This document shows, in pieces, positions 11,467-58,301 of a stretch of 64,000 bases of DNA. Position 1 is the stretch's first letter; every line of letters begins with the position of its first letter. The DNA is from Candidatus Vogelbacteria bacterium (GTDB lineage Bacteria > Patescibacteriota > Minisyncoccia > Phycocordibacterales > XYD1-FULL-46-19): assembly GCA_903864935.1 (NCBI GenBank), contig CAIPHT010000006.1, forward strand, positions 101,198 to 165,197. Direction: 5' to 3'. The position numbers and the translations under genes are program-made. The notes beneath the pieces are model-generated. The model saw only the letters and a list, made by a program, of their open reading frames with translations. It made no database searches and was not told the DNA's origin.

Positions 11467-11898
11467 TTAGCGATTTAGGTAAGTAACTGTTAATTGCAAA
11501 ACAGTGGCAAAGGAGACCCAGAGTAGGTATGGGATTTGCAGATAGAAAATCCACATTATGCTTGACCCGCCTTCGCTCACGAGCTTCGACGAGGCGAAGA
11601 AAATAGCGAGCATTGCCCAGATGAGCGTGGCGAGAATAAGCAATATATCAGCAGCCGCCAAAAGATTATTCTTCAGGCCAAATTGAAGCGGAGTAAAAGC
11701 GAAATTGAAGATTAGGTTCAAGAGAAACGGTAAAGCAACCACTAGGCCAATCTTCCCTTGCCAAGCCAGATAGAAAACCTTGCCAAAGGAAACAGCGATC
11801 AGACAATAGAGGAAGGTCCACACGGGGCCAAAAAGCCACGATGGTGGCGACCAAGTCGGTTTGATAATTGTTGAGTACCAGTTATAAGAGTTATTCAT
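11467..11898 (-). CDS. tspO: TspO/MBR tryptophan-rich sensory protein
   Basis: KPTWSPPSWLFGPVWTFLY ... LQIPYLLWVSFATVLQ, five TM helices. Confidence 0.85.
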   Translation of the reverse strand: MNNSYNWYSTIIKPTWSPPSWLFGPVWTFLYCLIAVSFGKVFYLAWQGKIGLVVALPFLLNLIFNFAFTPLQFGLKNNLLAAADILLILATLIWAMLAIFFASSKLVSEGGSSIMWIFYLQIPYLLWVSFATVLQLTVTYLNR

Positions 11899-13207: not shown

Positions 13208-13221
13208 TTTAAAAATCATGA

Positions 13222-13274
13222 CACACCAAAGCTATTTCCCTTCATACCAACAAACTCCAGTTTGTAAGGATGTT
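13222..13274. repeat. direct repeat, copy 1 (acaccaaagctatt..tcataccaacaaactccagtttgtaaggatgtt; contains 16-bp palindrome ACAAACTCCAGTTTGT)
   Basis: Near-identical to 13612-13663, 13853-13887 and 14432-14467. Confidence 0.8.
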
Positions 13275-13312
13275 AAATCAAAAAAAATAAATGAGACTAA
13301 ATTAAAATTAGG

Positions 13313-13618
13313 TTATGGTAGCGAGCGGAAGGTTTTGAGAAAATCGGCAAAGACTTTGCCGTAGGGCGAGAGCTCGTGCAGGACAAATTTGCCCTGATAT
13401 TTCTTATTGATTAGACCAGCGATATTGAGTCGTCTTGCGTGCTCCCCAATCGTCTTCTCATTAGCCTTAATTAGCTCAATAATCTCCTCCAGCGTTATCC
13501 GCGGATGGGACGCAACGGCAAGAAGAATCTCAATTCGATAGTGATTGGCGAGGCCTTTCAGATGGCGCTCCATTTGCTTGGACGTTTTTAATTTGCTCAT
13601 GACAATATTATACACCAA
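13313..13618 (-). CDS. ArsR/SmtB-family winged-helix transcriptional regulator
   Basis: HYRIEILLAVASHPRITLEEIIELI..EHARRLNIAGLI (HTH); 101 aa. Confidence 0.75.
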   Translation of the reverse strand: MVYNIVMSKLKTSKQMERHLKGLANHYRIEILLAVASHPRITLEEIIELIKANEKTIGEHARRLNIAGLINKKYQGKFVLHELSPYGKVFADFLKTFRSLP

Positions 13619-13663
13619 AGCTATTCCCTCTCATACCAACAAACTCCAGTTTGTAAGGATGTT
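13612..13663. promoter_or_regulatory. direct repeat, copy 2, immediately upstream of the arsR-like start; candidate operator/promoter (tataat 6 nt before the ATG on minus)
   Basis: Palindrome ACAAACTCCAGTTTGT. On the minus strand the order is ...ttacaaactggagtttgttggtatgagagggaatagctttggtgTATAATattgtcATG. Confidence 0.5.
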
Positions 13664-13852
13664 AATTAAGTTGAAAAAAAAGAAGGCCCCGCGAAGACCG
13701 GAGTGTCTTCGCGGGGCGGCACTAACTGCCGTTACAGCAGTGCGCAACAGTCCTGAGCGTGTAACGCTTCATGACGAGGGCTCCTCATGGTTAATCCTCT
13801 CCTCTATTATCATTATAGCATAGTCGTCAAGCCCTCCCTCAAAGACGATCCT

Positions 13853-13887
13853 TCTCATACCAACAAACTCCAGTTTGTAAGGATGTT
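13853..13887. repeat. direct repeat, copy 3
   Basis: tctcataccaacaaactccagtttgtaaggatgtt, followed by a partial echo gaggatgttta. Confidence 0.75.
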
Positions 13888-13906
13888 TAAATTTGAGTGA
13901 GGATGT

Positions 13907-14410
13907 TTATTTATAGATGGCGATGAGTTGGCGGAGGATGAGTGATTGAGGGGTGATCTCTTCGCCAGGGAAATCGAACCAAACTCGCAAAAAATCTTCT
14001 CGCTTAATCTTCCTCTCCCCGCCAATCTCCGGATCTTGAAGATAGATATAATCATCATCAAGCCCCGACACCACCGAGTAATGACCGTCGGGCACCTCCG
14101 AATCATCATAATCTTGTCGCCCCCGAGTGAACCAATTCACAATGACCGGTGTCCCCTTCTCGAGCCACTCCTCAATCTCCGCAAAATTGCTCTCATTCTT
14201 AATCTCCGCCCTGAAGCCAAGAGACTCTGCCGCTCGGACTATATCTTTGTCGCTAATGCCCAGATCAGAGACTAGACCTGTCAACTCGGCCAATTCTTTC
14301 TCCGTTTTCTCAACGCCATAATAATCCAAGACAATCTTAAGCGAAGCCGACCCGCACATCCCCGCATGCAAGGTTTCTTGAAAAGGTTTAATGGCTAGAT
14401 GTTTGTTCAT
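13907..14410 (-). CDS. peptidase C39-like domain protein (cytoplasmic, 167 aa)
   Basis: HAGMCGSASLKIVLDYYG, the classical C39 active-site Cys context. Confidence 0.6.
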   Translation of the reverse strand: MNKHLAIKPFQETLHAGMCGSASLKIVLDYYGVEKTEKELAELTGLVSDLGISDKDIVRAAESLGFRAEIKNESNFAEIEEWLEKGTPVIVNWFTRGRQDYDDSEVPDGHYSVVSGLDDDYIYLQDPEIGGERKIKREDFLRVWFDFPGEEITPQSLILRQLIAIYK

Positions 14411-14431
14411 GAGATTATTTTACCTCAGTCT

Positions 14432-14467
14432 CCTCATCCCAACAAACTCCAGTTTGTAAGGATGTTT
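14432..14467. promoter_or_regulatory. direct repeat, copy 4, upstream of the C39-like gene
   Basis: cctcatcccaacaaactccagtttgtaaggatgttt. Confidence 0.5.
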
Positions 14468-14498: not shown

Positions 14499-14531
14499 GA
14501 AGTCGTATCTCGCGTAGCCCGATCCGACTTC
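14499..14531. repeat. GC-rich palindromic element, type A (gaagtcgtatctcgcgtagcccgatccgacttc; reverse orientation)
   Basis: Its reverse complement differs by 1 nt from the copies inside holB (48394-48426) and fmt (57638-57670). It directly abuts the stop codon of gene 14532..15230. Confidence 0.8.
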
Positions 14532-15230: not shown

Positions 15231-15271
15231 ATGTTTATTTTACCTCTTATGATAAGAATTGCCACTCCCCC

Positions 15272-15307
15272 GAAGTCGTACTTCAAGTGAGCCCGAAGTC
15301 CGACTTC
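15272..15307. repeat. GC-rich palindromic element, type B (gaagtcgtacttcaagtgagcccgaagtccgacttc)
   Basis: Same architecture as the copy inside eno (62427-62462): gaagtNNNacttc-aagtgagccc-gaagtNNNacttc. Confidence 0.75.
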
Positions 15308-15371
15308 TTAGGTTTCAGTTATTATGACACATTTTACCCTTGAGACGAGGTCCGACCTCGTTTCTCCTCAA

Positions 15372-43613: not shown

Positions 43614-44612
43614 TCAAAGAACACCAATTTGCTCAATCTGCCGTTTTAAACCATACCCATTACCCCACCCCAGCATCCCCAAATATGATTGTAATATCTC
43701 CTCTTTACCACCGGCTTCTCTAATCTTCTTAAACATCCTTCTCTTGGTCGAAGTCCGCAAAACACAATGTTTATAGAAATGCACCCAGCCCAAAAAATCA
43801 ACGCCCGAAGAGAGCGTCTTGATGTAAACTTTATCAGGGTGCAGTTTTAGTTTAAGTTTTTCTGCTAGAAATTCGTCAACCTCAGTGAGAAGCTTTTCTA
43901 AATACTTTTTGTCACTCGACATAATCACAAAATCATCAGCATAACGGACATAATATTTAACTTTAAGCTGATGCTTCATAAATTGGTCAAAATCATTCAT
44001 GTAGATATTTACTAAAAGTTGCGAGGTCAAATTACCCAAGGGTAGACCTTTGCCTCTTTCAGTGCTGTGGAAACTTACAATAACTTGCTCAAGTAGCCAG
44101 ATAATATCAGGGTCTGGTTCAAACTTCTTCAAGATTTTAATCAAAACCTCGTGATCAATTGAAGCAAAGAACTTGCGCACATCACATTTCAAGACCCAAC
44201 AGGCCTGCGTATTGTTTTGTGAGACCTTCCGCCCAAATTCGGCAAATCGTTTAATTGCTCGGCGCGTGCCTTTGTTTAGACGACAAGAATATGAATCAAA
44301 AACAAATTTAGGGTTGAAGTGATAATACAGAACCCGATAAATAGCATGATGGAGTAGACGATCACGAACCGTGGCCTTGTGGATATCACGCGGTTTGGGA
44401 TCAGAAATTTTGAAGGCTTGATAAGAGCCATGGGCATAAATTTTGTTTTTGAGATCAGAATGGAGGGCAATGATATTACTCATGAGATTTCTCTCAAATT
44501 CTTGAACATCTTTTTTAGATTTTTTGTCTCTGATGAATTCCCGCCAAGCGCCTAGCAAATTATCAAGCGAGATGATATCCTCATATTTATGGATAAATTG
44601 AATTTTTCTCAC
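43614..44612 (-). CDS. reverse transcriptase of a diversity-generating retroelement (DGR RT), GTG start
   Basis: RT motifs: LPLGNLTSQLLVNIYMNDFD (DGR-type (I/L)GxxxSQ, not group II QGxxxSP), YVRYADDFVI (YxDD), KT...FLGW. 332 aa. TR/VR pair nearby. Confidence 0.85.
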   Translation of the reverse strand: MRKIQFIHKYEDIISLDNLLGAWREFIRDKKSKKDVQEFERNLMSNIIALHSDLKNKIYAHGSYQAFKISDPKPRDIHKATVRDRLLHHAIYRVLYYHFNPKFVFDSYSCRLNKGTRRAIKRFAEFGRKVSQNNTQACWVLKCDVRKFFASIDHEVLIKILKKFEPDPDIIWLLEQVIVSFHSTERGKGLPLGNLTSQLLVNIYMNDFDQFMKHQLKVKYYVRYADDFVIMSSDKKYLEKLLTEVDEFLAEKLKLKLHPDKVYIKTLSSGVDFLGWVHFYKHCVLRTSTKRRMFKKIREAGGKEEILQSYLGMLGWGNGYGLKRQIEQIGVL

Positions 44613-44625
44613 ACAACCAATAATA

Positions 44626-44634
44626 CCCCCCCCC
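44626..44634. repeat. homopolymeric C9 (G9 on the coding strand) in the RT 5' leader
   Basis: 9 consecutive C at 44626-44634, 14-22 nt upstream of the GTG start of the RT on the minus strand. Confidence 0.8.
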
Positions 44635-44733
44635 GCAAAATTACTACCACTTCTTCAGTATCTCAAATCAGCCTATCTTCTGTGGCATCAATATCACCAG
44701 GTTCTTCCCAAGGTTGAGCGGTTTTCTCTAGGT

Positions 44734-45006
44734 TTGAGAGTTGATAATTTATTTATTGAAACAATAGAAGCGGTTGCCAGTGCCTCTTTTTTGTCTCCAG
44801 TCGACAAGGCACCTTATGTTCGACTGGCCATAAGAAAAATGGATACAATAAAAGTTTTGTTATTGGTTTTATGGGAAACAAGGTCTCTGGATACTAAAAA
44901 ATATGCGGCCATATCTGTAAAACTAGAAGAGATTGGCAAAATGCTCGGTGGTTGGAGTGGCCAATTGCTAAAACAAAACTCCCCCGCAAAAACGGGAGAG
45001 AAATGA
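44734..45006 (+). CDS. avd: Avd-like accessory variability determinant (four-helix-bundle protein), non-ATG start
   Basis: C-terminus LEEIGKMLGGWSGQLLKQN resembles Bordetella bAvd IAEVGRILGSWIARVNRK. Frame open from 44602; first candidate start TTG 44734. Divergent to the RT and ends 5 nt before the TR. Confidence 0.45.
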   Translation: MRVDNLFIETIEAVASASFLSPVDKAPYVRLAIRKMDTIKVLLLVLWETRSLDTKKYAAISVKLEEIGKMLGGWSGQLLKQNSPAKTGEK

Positions 45007-45010
45007 AGGA

Positions 45011-45127
45011 GTTGCGGAAGGCAAACCAATCGTAGGAGTTGTCGAAGTTCTCGATCCAGTTGAGATTCGCCTTGCGCTTCGAGTCGTTCCACCAGACATA
45101 GCAGGCGTTGCGGTTGCCCTCGAAGGA
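45011..45127 (-). repeat. DGR template repeat (TR), 117 bp
   Basis: Aligns gap-free to 45495-45611 with 11 mismatches, all at T on the + strand (A on the sense/minus strand). Encodes an Asn(AAC)-rich segment if translated. Confidence 0.85.
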
Positions 45128-45490
45128 ATTGTGCGTGAGACTATCCGTACCACTGCCCTTTGAATACTCTCGGGGCTGTATATTATTCGGCATCTCTTCC
45201 AATAGAATTACTACTGGATACAATGCCCTAGTGACTCGCACCAAGTAGCTTCATTTTTTGTGAAGTGTCTGCATACATCACTCTATCCGAAACCGTAGTC
45301 GCGAATATTCTCAATGTATGGATACTGGATTCGGTAGAGAGAAACCGTAGTCGCTCACATATTCACCTACTACCACCAACTATCTTACCATAACTAATAC
45401 GAGCTCGGTATCCGCCAAAGCGAACACCGAGCCCAAGAGCTGAAGACCGAGGCCAAAGAACAGAAGTTCAAAGAGGCCCAGGCTTAAGGT

Positions 45491-46111
45491 CTACTTGCGG
45501 AAGGCAAACCAAGCGTAGGAGAAGTCGAAGACCTCGATCCAGTCGAGACCCGCCTCGCGCATCGAGTCGTTCCACCAGACATAGCAGGCGTCGCGGTTGC
45601 CCTCGAAGGAACAATCCGTCGTGGCCACCACGTACATCGGATTTTGCTCGAGCTGTTCGTGAAGCTTCGGGTGCTGTTCGCCAACGGCGAAGACTTCGCG
45701 CGGGTTGGTCCGCTTAAGGCCGTGAGCTCCCGCCCACACATTGGCCTTGTCCCAGTTGCCGTCGCCCTTCGGGAAGTTGAGAAGGATGAGTTCCTCCTCG
45801 ATGACTTCCCCGCCGACCGACGGATACTGACCGCCAACCTTGCGGACATTGTAGCTATCCGGCGTGTCGGGGCCAGCGGCACTCACGGCATCTTGCCACT
45901 CACGGCTCTGATCAACCTTGACCCTGAGAACGTGGACGCGCGCGCCTTCCGGCGGAGCAATGCCCCCCGATTCAAGTTTGAGAGAGTCGAGGAAGTGGCC
46001 AAAAGAACCGTCGTCGATGGCTTGCTGAAAACGATCACGACCCACCTGTTTCTCGTTGGCGATTTTGCGGAGACACTCCGCCTGGCTAACTGTTACGGGC
46101 TTGCGACTCAT
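45491..46111 (-). CDS. DGR target protein with C-terminal variable (C-type-lectin/FGE-like) domain
   Basis: C-terminus ...FEGNRDACYVWWNDSMREAGLDWIEVFDFSYAWFAFRK is encoded by the VR; GC about 58%. Confidence 0.8.
   Translation of the reverse strand: MSRKPVTVSQAECLRKIANEKQVGRDRFQQAIDDGSFGHFLDSLKLESGGIAPPEGARVHVLRVKVDQSREWQDAVSAAGPDTPDSYNVRKVGGQYPSVGGEVIEEELILLNFPKGDGNWDKANVWAGAHGLKRTNPREVFAVGEQHPKLHEQLEQNPMYVVATTDCSFEGNRDACYVWWNDSMREAGLDWIEVFDFSYAWFAFRK
45495..45611 (-). repeat. DGR variable repeat (VR) at the 3' end of the target gene
   Basis: Same 117-bp alignment. VR codons differ from TR only where the TR sense strand has A (AAC>GAC/GGC/GTC/TTC, AAG>ATG/GAG, GAC>GCC). Confidence 0.85.
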
Positions 46112-48094: not shown

Positions 48095-48853
48095 TCAATT
48101 TGGTAAAATAAACGCCAGATGTTCGAGAATCAAACGATTGGACGAACGGGGGTTCTCGAGATAACGGCGGGATTTTTCTAATTCGTGGAGGGAAAGTTCT
48201 TCGTCTTTAGTAATTTTCCTCATCTCTATCCCCGCTCGGAGAGCTTTTTCTAAATCAATAACAAAATCAATTATTTCGCTCTTACTTTTGTCTTTATTTT
48301 TTAGAAATTCTTTTTGTAAGAATTCAAGACGGTCGGGGAGGTCTAGTTTGAGAAAGTTACTAGCCCTCTTTTCGGCTTCACCGAAGTCGGATCTGGCTAC
48401 GCGAGATACGACTTCAGTTCCGCCTCCACTTGGAGGTTTCGCCTCCAAGTTACCGCCAACATTCATTACCATCATTCGCGAACGAACTGTCGGGAGAAAA
48501 ATCTCGGCCGAACGAGCAATAATAAAAAAATGAGTATCAGGGATTGGCTCTTCAAAAGTCTTGAGCAAAGCATTTTGCGCTTCGGGAGTCGCTGAATTTA
48601 TCTCAAGGACAAAAAAACGGCCACTGCCAGAAAATGATTTGCGTGATTCCTTCTCAATCAAACCATGACTGTCTTTGATACCAAAAGAATCATAACTCTG
48701 CCAAAAGATATCTGGGCAAGAGGACAAATTCTCAATCTTTAGATTCTTTTTTAGTTCTTGCTTAAGAATTTCTCGCCAATATTCCCTATCTCCGACCAGC
48801 AAATAGGCATGATATAATTCCTCAAAATTAAAGATTTTTTTATCTTTCATCAA
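48095..48853 (-). CDS. holB: DNA polymerase III delta' subunit-like (clamp-loader AAA+), carrying an in-frame palindromic-element insertion
   Basis: HAYLLVG, FFIIARSAEIFLPTVRSR (sensor-2 like). The insertion encodes ...KPPSGGGTEVVSRVARSDFGEAEKR. Confidence 0.65.
   Translation of the reverse strand: MMKDKKIFNFEELYHAYLLVGDREYWREILKQELKKNLKIENLSSCPDIFWQSYDSFGIKDSHGLIEKESRKSFSGSGRFFVLEINSATPEAQNALLKTFEEPIPDTHFFIIARSAEIFLPTVRSRMMVMNVGGNLEAKPPSGGGTEVVSRVARSDFGEAEKRASNFLKLDLPDRLEFLQKEFLKNKDKSKSEIIDFVIDLEKALRAGIEMRKITKDEELSLHELEKSRRYLENPRSSNRLILEHLAFILPN
48394..48426. repeat. GC-rich palindromic element, type A, inside holB coding sequence (in frame)
   Basis: gaagtcggatctggctacgcgagatacgacttc, identical to 57638-57670. 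Confidence 0.85.
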
Positions 48854-57398: not shown

Positions 57399-58301
57399 AT
57401 GAATTTTGCTTTCTTCGGAACTGATGAATTTAGCGTGCGGGTTTTAGATAATCTAAAAAAGGCAAATCTTTTGCCTTCACTTATTGTCACCGTGCCCGAT
57501 CAACCCAAGGGACGCAAGATGGTGATGACTCCCCCACTAGCGAAGACGTGGGCAGAGGAAAATAATATTGAGGTGATGCAGCCGGCAAGTTTGAAAGGCC
57601 TCAAGTTTTCTGAAGTCGCATCTGACCAGAGCTCCCCGAAGTCGGATCTGGCTACGCGAGATACGACTTCTGTCCGCTCTTGGGACCTCTTCATCGTTGC
57701 CTCATATGGCAAAATCATTCCCCAAGAAATTCTCGACATCCCAACTCATGGTACCCTAAATATTCACCCATCGCTTTTGCCTAAATACCGCGGACCCTCA
57801 CCACTTGAGACAGCCATCTTGAATGGGGACCAAGAAACCGGTGTCGCCATCATGCTTGTTGATGCGCTAATGGATCACGGGCCAATTGTTGCCATGGAGA
57901 AAATTGAATTAAACGATAAGTATAATTTCGAACAATTGCGCGACAAACTGGCCGACGAAGGAACAAGCTTGCTAAAAAAAATTTTATCAGATTATCTCGA
58001 CGGTAAAATTACACCCGAACCTCAAGATCACGACCAAGCTACTGTTACCAAAAAATTTACTAAAGAAGACGGCTTCCTCGATCAAGAAGCGCCCGCTCTT
58101 TCTCGCTATCGTCAAATTCTCGCCCTTAATCCTTGGCCTGGCACTTACTTAGATTACCCTGGTCCCGATGGCAAAATTCGCCTAATTATAAAACAAGCTC
58201 ATCTCGACGGAGATAAGCTTGTCTATGATCGTGTCGTCCCCGAAGGACGCAAAGAGATGGATTGGAAATCTTTTCTAAATGGTTTACACGCGACGAAATA
58301 G
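57399..58301 (+). CDS. fmt: methionyl-tRNA formyltransferase with an in-frame palindromic-element insertion
   Basis: MNFAFFGTDEFSV..., HPSLLPKYRGPSP (SLLP motif), C-terminal domain. Extra ...SEVASDQSSPKSDLATRDTTSVRSW... segment between QPASL and VASYG, compared with canonical Fmt. Confidence 0.9.
   Translation: MNFAFFGTDEFSVRVLDNLKKANLLPSLIVTVPDQPKGRKMVMTPPLAKTWAEENNIEVMQPASLKGLKFSEVASDQSSPKSDLATRDTTSVRSWDLFIVASYGKIIPQEILDIPTHGTLNIHPSLLPKYRGPSPLETAILNGDQETGVAIMLVDALMDHGPIVAMEKIELNDKYNFEQLRDKLADEGTSLLKKILSDYLDGKITPEPQDHDQATVTKKFTKEDGFLDQEAPALSRYRQILALNPWPGTYLDYPGPDGKIRLIIKQAHLDGDKLVYDRVVPEGRKEMDWKSFLNGLHATK
57638..57670. repeat. GC-rich palindromic element, type A, inside fmt (in frame)
   Basis: gaagtcggatctggctacgcgagatacgacttc; a partial second copy gaagtcgcatctg lies 26 nt upstream. 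Confidence 0.85.

Follow-up and report, generated by a model that had tools for sequence, protein, structure and literature searches.

The question raised by the stretch of DNA described here, 64,000 nucleotides of contig CAIPHT010000006.1 from a Candidatus Vogelbacteria bacterium (hereafter the window), is what function might be served by four near-identical direct repeats (copies 1 to 4, termed S1 to S4 in order of position) that alternate with minus-strand genes, among them one for a small regulator resembling ArsR (hereafter arsR) and one for a C39-family peptidase. The initial annotation had read the repeats as operator/promoter sites for the ArsR homodimer, forming a small autoregulated regulon, and had named a cassette-like duplication mechanism as the alternative. 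The linkage between site and gene, the overlap of the sites with promoters, and the mirror symmetry of the invariant bases all favor the former proposal: the repeats are likely to be operators of the ArsR/SmtB-fold protein encoded between copies 2 and 1, marking a set of regulon members and serving, in addition, as substrates for recombination.

The repeated element and its linkage to arsR

The repeats share a 27-nt core, CAACAAACTCCAGTTTGTAAGGATGTT on the plus strand, which sequence is present without mismatch at 13248-13274, 13637-13663, 13861-13887, and 14440-14466, always on one strand and in the same orientation. At up to three mismatches the core had zero further matches in the window, and 100 shuffles gave an expectation of 0.00; the earlier description of four near-identical direct repeats accordingly holds, since chance predicts none. 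The repeat family reaches 48 nt, over which length the identity to the reference copy is 77-100%; copies 1 and 2 are homologous over 77 nt (83% identity). The 16-bp palindrome pointed out by the initial annotation, the inner inverted repeat ACAAACT-CC-AGTTTGT, was perfect in all four copies, but the functional unit turned out to be larger: a 34-bp near-palindrome of 16-2-16 form, AACATCCTTACAAACT-GG-AGTTTGTTGGTATGAG on the gene-sense strand (Table 1), whose full extent we recognized because comparison with the cores of other genomes revealed it. In the window copies the left arm is canonical and the right arm a variant (…AGTTTGTTGGTATGAG), and some other genomes contain the perfectly palindromic version, AACATCCTTACAAACT-GG-AGTTTGTAAGGATGTT. 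A weight matrix constructed from 132 sites matched the window at the four copies only, with scores of 49-50 and a shuffle maximum of 10.5. Nothing else in the window scored 12 or higher, and a diverged site before the TspO gene of the window (11467-11898) was not found.

We fetched metagenomic loci by similarity to the ArsR protein alone, at least 566 of which encode a relative, and analyzed the best 80 (64-90% identity). In the 77 loci with sufficient upstream sequence the inner 16-mer was sought, at up to four mismatches, within 110 nt upstream of arsR, and was encountered in 71; the remaining six contained visibly diverged versions. The chance of such a match is, by our own calculation, about 0.3% per locus. 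The absence of the palindrome upstream of arsR homologues elsewhere, which outcome the initial annotation had named as contrary to its proposal, was thus looked for and the opposite obtained. Furthermore, a second site lies at or over the arsR stop codon in nearly all of 79 loci, within unrelated flanks. A 21-nt core was exact in 13 species-level genomes of several classes of the candidate phyla radiation (CPR), whose ArsR proteins are just 50-89% identical, and in most of these genomes the core adjoins a homologue of this regulator, on one side or on both, in constant orientation. The genomes belong to the Saccharibacteria, the Paceibacterota, and the Moran-, Nomura-, Vogel-, and Sungiibacteria, along with two 3-kb contigs binned as Gammaproteobacteria, both carrying the same arsR and one of them also TspO, which contigs are probably mis-binned. 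In viral contigs the 21-nt core had no match, and on this ground a phage or mobile origin was rejected.

In 186 unique sites six positions of the left half-site are invariant (A4, C7, A10, A12, C15, and T16) and so are their six mirror positions in the right (A19, G20, T23, T25, G28, and T31), to make 12 in total. Of those sites 13 are perfect 16/16 palindromes, and one locus, L011 (L numbers denote the related loci and contigs), has a perfect 14-2-14 version. Judging from the bases, such mirrored invariance is characteristic of DNA read by a symmetric protein dimer and not of an RNA stem or an attC-type site. The most divergent homologue (L008; 50% identity), in which the recognition helix and the wing are altered, is accompanied by a palindrome that has changed symmetrically, to ACATTCT-TG-AGAATGT; as a single case, this paired change is only suggestive of a match between protein and site. 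That the palindrome might act as an RNA hairpin instead, as a processing or termination signal in read-through transcripts, could be argued from the location of the sites in the 3' regions of upstream genes, where they would be transcribed on read-through. The inner stem, however, would have a loop of 2 nt, no U-tract is present, and the repeat element gave only sub-threshold noise against Rfam; moreover, bases are invariant where compensatory changes would be expected, with positions 13 and 14 being complementary in just 51% of the sites. To this explanation we assign almost no probability.

The weight matrix located 235 sites in 93 loci (1-6 per locus), of which 82-83, depending on the motif, lie before arsR, 130 before other open reading frames (ORFs), and 23 without an ORF within 130 nt. 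The non-arsR sites keep the same invariant bases as the arsR sites and, in L010 and L017, sites without a nearby arsR stand directly upstream of TspO. Whereas TspO recurs 7-8 times as a target, the other targets are mostly singletons, and the gene right after arsR is hypervariable across loci. The targets confirmed by Pfam comprise, besides TspO, UvrC, a pyrimidine-dimer glycosylase (Pyr_excise), an MGMT-type DNA_binding_1 protein, GIY-YIG, a PD-(D/E)XK nuclease (PDDEXK_1), a PolB-like 3'-5' exonuclease, NUDIX (three times), TfoX_N, Cpn10 (GroES), GNAT, MIP, an M23 peptidase, YgjP-like, NYN, CYTH, DUF192, and DUF2177, in which list a theme of DNA-damage or photo-oxidative stress is plausible. 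A dispersed repeat, either a repetitive extragenic palindrome or a miniature inverted-repeat transposable element, was also considered and rejected: the copy number is low and linked to one gene, with all four window copies being within 1.3 kb around arsR and none elsewhere in the 64 kb, and the sites of the 93 other loci are concentrated at arsR and at the beginnings of genes.

Promoter geometry and the predicted regulator

As the initial annotation had noted, and as can be seen in the sequence, copies 2 and 4 lie immediately before the minus-strand starts of arsR and the C39 gene, with copies 1 and 3 being downstream of the two. In a survey of 83 arsR-proximal sites, TATAAT was perfect at 62 and had one mismatch at 19. 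The -10 box begins 3 nt past the element in 44 of the 83; the central hexamer of the element is TTGAGA, 16 nt upstream of the -10 box, likewise in 44; and in 49 the -10 box is separated from the ATG by 6 nt. These distances predict TTGAGA-16-TATAAT-6-ATG as the canonical arsR promoter, with the -35 box inside the operator center and the mRNA leaderless; in nearly all loci the element overlaps the -35 box and the spacer. In the window lineage, to which L007, L013/L018, and L016 also belong, the -10 box begins 17 nt past the element, and the right end of S2 overlaps the predicted -35 box (ATGAGA-16-TATAAT). The TATAAT earlier reported 6 nt before the ATG at copy 2 was found at that distance, which spacing implies a leaderless mRNA. 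The right arm of S4 provides a -35-like hexamer (TTGTTG or TTGGGA) located 17 nt from TAAAAT or AATAAT, with the ATG 3-6 nt further on.

In the same respect, the C39 gene and the DUF2726 gene of the window both have GGTAAAATAA, a few nt, and then ATG (14411-14422 and 15231-15243), the motif being a -10-like box 6 nt from the start codon without Shine-Dalgarno spacing; which arrangement suggests that leaderless mRNAs may be common in this organism.

The coding sequence of arsR begins with the ATG at 13600-13598, although public sources start the window protein at an internal Met (86 aa, P0001). An AlphaFold2 model (predicted local distance difference test, 90.6) exhibited the topology α1-α2-α3-αR-β1-β2-α5, with helices at residues 8-18, 21-32, 38-45, and 49-61, strands at 65-70 and 73-78, and a helix at 80-90. 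The top Foldseek matches were CadC, SmtB, HlyU, PagR, CzrA, and SqrR (template-modelling scores of 0.66-0.79 among the matches listed), at an identity of about 20% for the HlyU/PagR class; and a profile search of the PDB matched HlyU, ArsR, and CadC at E values between 5e-5 and 1e-3, the best (5e-5) being HlyU. From the model we are confident that the window protein has the ArsR/SmtB fold. The earlier designation as an ArsR regulator is therefore upheld by the fold and by Foldseek, but not by the scores of curated hidden Markov models (HMMs), so that membership in the ArsR/SmtB superfamily is supported by the fold and the operator type and not by curated HMM thresholds or metal-site motifs. 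Upon inspection of the sequence, the metal-sensing motif (Cys in α3/α3N; Asp, His, or Glu in α5) was absent: the 95 residues include no cysteine, α5 has no histidine, and the conserved histidines H13, H20, H54, and H75 lie outside that helix. The recognition helix, KTIGEHTRRL, is almost invariant among the homologues, many of the close ones having precomputed PF01022 hits, and the second-best NCBIfam model for the window protein, below threshold, was the SdpR-type autorepressor. The family contains at least 1030 clusters at 90% identity, whose members are annotated only generically and whose taxon labels, among the matches listed, are all of the Patescibacteria group or plain 'bacterium'; and literature searches, including one with the palindrome sequence itself, found no description of the regulator family or of the site. 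The regulator and its site would thus represent a CPR-wide autoregulated winged-helix repressor with its operator, apparently undescribed.

At 3237-4069 of L089, a locus whose genome also has a canonical arsR, we observed a second, divergent ArsR-like gene (89 aa, …MEKTVKGFSNHRRIQMLELL…), with a weak site (score 23) before it and TspO directly after, which gene may encode a paralogous regulator for 'variant half-site' flavours.

The Foldseek matches also include structures of AspA from pNOB8 (template-modelling score about 0.71), and palindromic sites that are clustered, with two of them bracketing a gene, could likewise be centromere-like or architectural elements bound by an ArsR-fold DNA-organizing protein of that kind. 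We consider this very unlikely, however, in that neither the window nor the other loci inspected have a parA/parB-like partner next to arsR, the context is one of chromosomal housekeeping genes, and the sites are in promoter register.

In the mechanism that we propose instead, the repeats would be operators, with each 34-bp element being bound by a dimer, or possibly two dimers, of the 95-aa protein. The sites overlie or adjoin the -35 box and spacer in promoters from which transcription would begin at or just before the start codon, so that the bound protein would block RNA polymerase; hence we infer repression rather than activation, directed at arsR itself (S2), at the C39 peptidase gene (S4), which would be a member of the regulon, and probably at a small ORF or RNA unit between S3 and S2 (S3). 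Repression by occlusion is well founded in the predicted promoters of arsR and the C39 gene, and at S3 we infer it. S1 would be the conserved post-arsR site, which elsewhere would control whichever gene follows. Some signal would release the repressor, and that signal would be neither thiol-based nor sensed via the classical α3N or α5 metal sites. The pair would constitute a Patescibacteria-wide regulon with TspO and DNA-repair/stress genes as its recurrent targets.

Several observations weigh against this interpretation. The window ArsR scored 21.3 bits with the Pfam model HTH_5, whose cut-off is 22, and 32.4 with the NCBIfam model HTH_metalloreg, whose cut-off is 55. About 36 nt separate S3 from the -10 box of the small unit downstream of it, at which distance simple occlusion is inapplicable; S1 has no downstream gene in the window, because it faces the terminator of a convergent HAD hydrolase gene; and the distance from non-arsR sites to the next start codon is broad, from -12 to 130 nt. 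When protein-DNA covariation was assessed by mutual information, the top pairs involved variable residues outside of the recognition helix, a result confounded by phylogeny. Finally, identity among the window copies does not stop at the palindrome (an exact 27 nt, and homology over as much as 77 nt), and it reflects the history of duplication together with selection.

This last point would also fit an explanation in which function is confined to the copy upstream of arsR, with the remaining three being inert by-products of recent local segmental duplications of the arsR promoter region. Copies 1, 2, and 3 share promoter flank beyond the palindrome, the duplicated portion on copies 1 and 3 being 20-35 nt and ending at different distances (about 20 and about 35 nt); and S1, in addition to having no following gene, retains a -10 box that an 8-nt gap relative to S2 has destroyed, together with a fragment of the arsR start, GTCATGA. 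The site after the stop codon, nevertheless, occurs in nearly all of the 79 independent loci with unrelated flanks, S4 stands in promoter register before the C39 gene, and the sites away from arsR retain the invariant bases, so that we hold the inertness of those three copies to be decidedly unlikely.

Layout, loss, and duplication of the units between the repeats

Read in gene sense, with all genes on the minus strand, the order is the DUF2726 gene, a 33-nt hairpin repeat, S4, the C39 gene, S3, the small unit, S2, arsR, and S1, the last being directly downstream of arsR and followed by the remnant of an arsR promoter and then by the HAD hydrolase terminator (Table 1). The initial annotation had described a strong GC hairpin in a gene-less spacer; the hairpin was confirmed, with 13 pairs at 13686-13717 and a T-tail on the minus strand, but the spacer contains a small minus-strand unit (13676-13817) composed of a -10 box, a ribosome-binding site, an 18-codon ORF, and the terminator, which unit stands alone between S3 and S2 and had no family match in Rfam. 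The encoded 18 aa, MRSPRHEALHAQDCCALL, include a Cys-Cys pair, and the ORF may correspond to a micropeptide, to a substrate of the C39 peptidase, or to part of a small RNA.

Table 1. Position of the operator copies and of the associated genes and signals in the window.
Feature	Position	Strand	Basis
Operator copy S1	13241..13274	-	Weight-matrix score 49.1 vs shuffle maximum 10.5; exact core
arsR promoter/start remnant joined to S1 (…GCTTTGGTGTGTCATGA)	13218..13240	-	Copies 1 and 2 homologous over 77 nt; sequence comparison
arsR, for a winged-helix regulator of ArsR/SmtB fold, 95 aa, which would bind the sites	13313..13600	-	HMM, AlphaFold2, Foldseek
arsR -10 box TATAAT, 6 nt before ATG	13607..13612	-	Sequence, promoter prediction
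Operator copy S2, upstream of arsR	13630..13663	-	Weight matrix, promoter prediction
Intrinsic terminator, 13-bp GC-rich stem and T-tail	13676..13717	-	Ends the small unit
18-codon ORF (MRSPRHEALHAQDCCALL) with GAGGAG ribosome-binding site	13732..13788	-	Sequence
Extended -10 box of the small unit (TGCTATAAT)	13812..13817	-	Sequence
Operator copy S3, downstream of the C39 gene	13854..13887	-	Weight matrix, sequence
C39-family cysteine peptidase domain protein, stand-alone, 167 aa	13907..14410	-	Peptidase_C39 E=2e-13, Peptidase_C39_2 E=1.1e-12
Operator copy S4, upstream of the C39 gene	14433..14466	-	Weight matrix, promoter prediction, sequence
33-nt hairpin repeat adjoining S4, separate from the operator	14499..14531	-	Sequence; marks a second kind of breakpoint in relatives

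The initial annotation had recommended a comparison with the corresponding loci of relatives for variation in the units, and in that comparison the loci did carry different sets. The closest relative, L018 (90% ArsR identity), is without the small unit and carries additional genes, about 1.6 kb in all, which separate an S4-type site from the C39 gene and are flanked by copies of the 33-nt hairpin repeat; in L100 (96% identity) arsR comes directly after that hairpin, and neither the C39 gene nor the small unit is present. Public contigs of closely related populations are rearranged precisely at the repeats. In L003 the left flank of S3 is joined precisely to the right flank of S1, with the small unit and arsR deleted; as a caveat on this contig, its nucleotides 1-109 have no match in the window and join in the middle of the DUF2726 gene, constituting either a further rearrangement or an assembly chimera. 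L002 begins with the 3' end of the C39 gene joined to the 5' end of the same gene via a hybrid S3/S4 site, arsR is likewise joined through a hybrid S1/S2 site in L099, and L001 ends exactly at S4. The junctions in L002 and L099 indicate tandem duplications or excised circles, either of which would fit. All of these contigs, L003 included, are short.

Among the main ORFs of the window no match to Phage_integrase, resolvase, or transposase was found, nor was a recombinase systematically present near the larger arrays of other loci, where a single rve transposase was seen, in L062. Since no recombinase is encoded nearby, and since S1 and S3 differ in how far their duplicated flanks extend from the site, the likely cause of the rearrangements is homologous or slippage-type recombination between the repeated operators, as direct repeats of 33-48 nt. 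As long direct repeats of nearly identical sequence, the operator copies would recombine and thereby delete or duplicate the units between them, from which process the cassette-like appearance would result.

That appearance may also be taken at face value, with the repeats being primarily site-specific recombination sites of an attC-like cassette system in which arsR is merely one common cassette. The layout is one of repeat, gene, repeat, gene in a single orientation; L003 has lost two units precisely, L002 and L099 contain circle or tandem junctions of the C39 and arsR units, and L018 and L100 differ in their unit sets; the gene after arsR varies greatly, and in some loci the arrays reach 6 sites. 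We nevertheless give little credence to such a system. The cassette-like duplication that the initial annotation named as its alternative is partly borne out, in that units are lost and duplicated in related populations with the repeats as breakpoints. No tyrosine or serine recombinase and no transposase was found, however, among the main ORFs of the window. Furthermore, attC sites are conserved in structure and variable in sequence, whereas in the present sites it is the sequence that is conserved, its invariant bases being mirror-symmetric around a 2-bp center, and the sites stand in fixed register with the arsR -10 box and start codon; single sites occur before TspO, far from any array; the flanks of copies 1 and 3, ending about 20 versus about 35 nt away, fit a segmental duplication and not a fixed crossover; and direct repeats of 33-48 nt suffice for homologous or slippage-type deletion and duplication.

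Two specific candidates were likewise rejected. An asymmetric 2-bp center is suggestive of a serine-recombinase crossover site, but no recombinase was found, and the center, TG or GG, belongs to the -35 hexamer in most arsR promoters. With respect to attC and integrons, the core motif GTTRRRY of the R''-L''/L'-R' architecture fitted only one of the four window copies, by eye, and no IntI-type recombinase was found.

As a variant of the operator reading we considered that the operator might function as a portable 'docking site', with operator-promoter-gene units being excised as circles and reinserted at other operators, for which possibility we see only an outside chance. If it were true, the Patescibacteria would keep recruiting genes into one stress regulon downstream of arsR, the stress being possibly DNA-damage or photo-oxidative in nature, by means of a regulon-building cassette system that either has no dedicated integrase or has an unrecognized one.

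The 33-nt hairpin repeat, GAAGTCGGATC[G/T]GGCTACGCGAGATACGACTTC, is present in the window at 14499-14531 on the minus strand and at 48383-48415 and 57638-57670 on the plus strand, with related copies at 15269-15323. The copy adjacent to S4 is intergenic, and the other two lie in frame within a gene for a DNA polymerase III delta'-like protein and within fmt, where the repeat falls on an extra loop segment. The same repeat is located at the rearrangement breakpoints in L018 and L100. Beyond it, the segment 14532-24505 is a low-GC (0.32-0.40) run of minus-strand accessory or defense-like genes, encoding DUF2726, a weak match to HEPN_Apea, Schlafen AlbA_2, a Schlafen-type helicase fused to an S24 peptidase, a MazG-like protein, two Fic proteins (one with RhuM), a YgaP-like transmembrane protein, YbjQ, DUF5680, and NUDIX, which segment looks like a variable island adjoining the operator array.

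Elsewhere in the window, a complete diversity-generating retroelement occupies positions 43614-46111, with a reverse transcriptase (RVT_1, 43614-44612, minus strand), a 117-nt template repeat at 45012-45128, and a variable repeat at 45495-45611, at the 3' end of a 206-aa ORF (45491-46111). All of the 11 mismatches between the two repeats are at template adenines, replaced by G, T, or C.

Known systems and the significance of the regulator/site pair

Members of the ArsR/SmtB family classically bind 12-2-12 inverted repeats in their own promoter. The system proposed here resembles the autorepressors SmtB, CzrA, and CadC in consisting of a small homodimeric winged-helix protein of the topology α1-α2-α3-αR-β1-β2-α5 and an operator that is an imperfect inverted repeat with a 2-bp center, placed over the promoter of the regulator gene itself and present in further copies before regulated genes. 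Unlike those proteins, the present one is cysteine-free, has no His/Asp/Glu metal site in α5, and scores below curated HMM cut-offs; its targets are not metal-efflux genes; and its operator is longer (16-2-16) and far more conserved, with a second copy after the stop codon being nearly universal. With HlyU, PagR, and the SdpR autorepressor the protein has in common the lack of the classical metal sites, HlyU being also its best sequence match among solved structures, but the sensing Cys pair of HlyU and BigR is missing, the identity is about 20%, the regulon differs, and the present family is restricted to the CPR among the matches listed.

The analogy with LexA and the SOS box, or with DdrO and its RDRM motif, is functional only: an autoregulated repressor with a palindromic box before scattered DNA-repair genes, here UvrC, Pyr_excise, MGMT-like, GIY-YIG, exonuclease, and NUDIX. 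The fold is unrelated, no partner for cleavage, such as a protease, was identified, and the targets also include TspO and many unrelated genes. Integron attC arrays are similar in that units of the same orientation are each bounded by repeats, natural variants differ by whole units, and junctions compatible with circles occur; but the present system lacks an integrase, and its sites show conservation of sequence and not of structure, stand in promoter register, and are tied to a DNA-binding regulator.

The Patescibacteria, or CPR, account for a large share of bacterial diversity, and almost none of them have been cultured; to our knowledge, almost nothing is known of their gene regulation. The present analysis provides a concrete regulator/operator pair, with a 34-bp site of 12 invariant bases, represented by no fewer than 1030 protein clusters and no fewer than 566 metagenomic loci, together with a predicted leaderless promoter architecture and a first list of targets: TspO, genes for the repair of ultraviolet and alkylation damage, NUDIX, and GroES. 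The pair can be tested in vitro without the need to culture the organisms, and it would offer a natural example of long, conserved operators acting as the recombination substrates that reshuffle the very genes they control.

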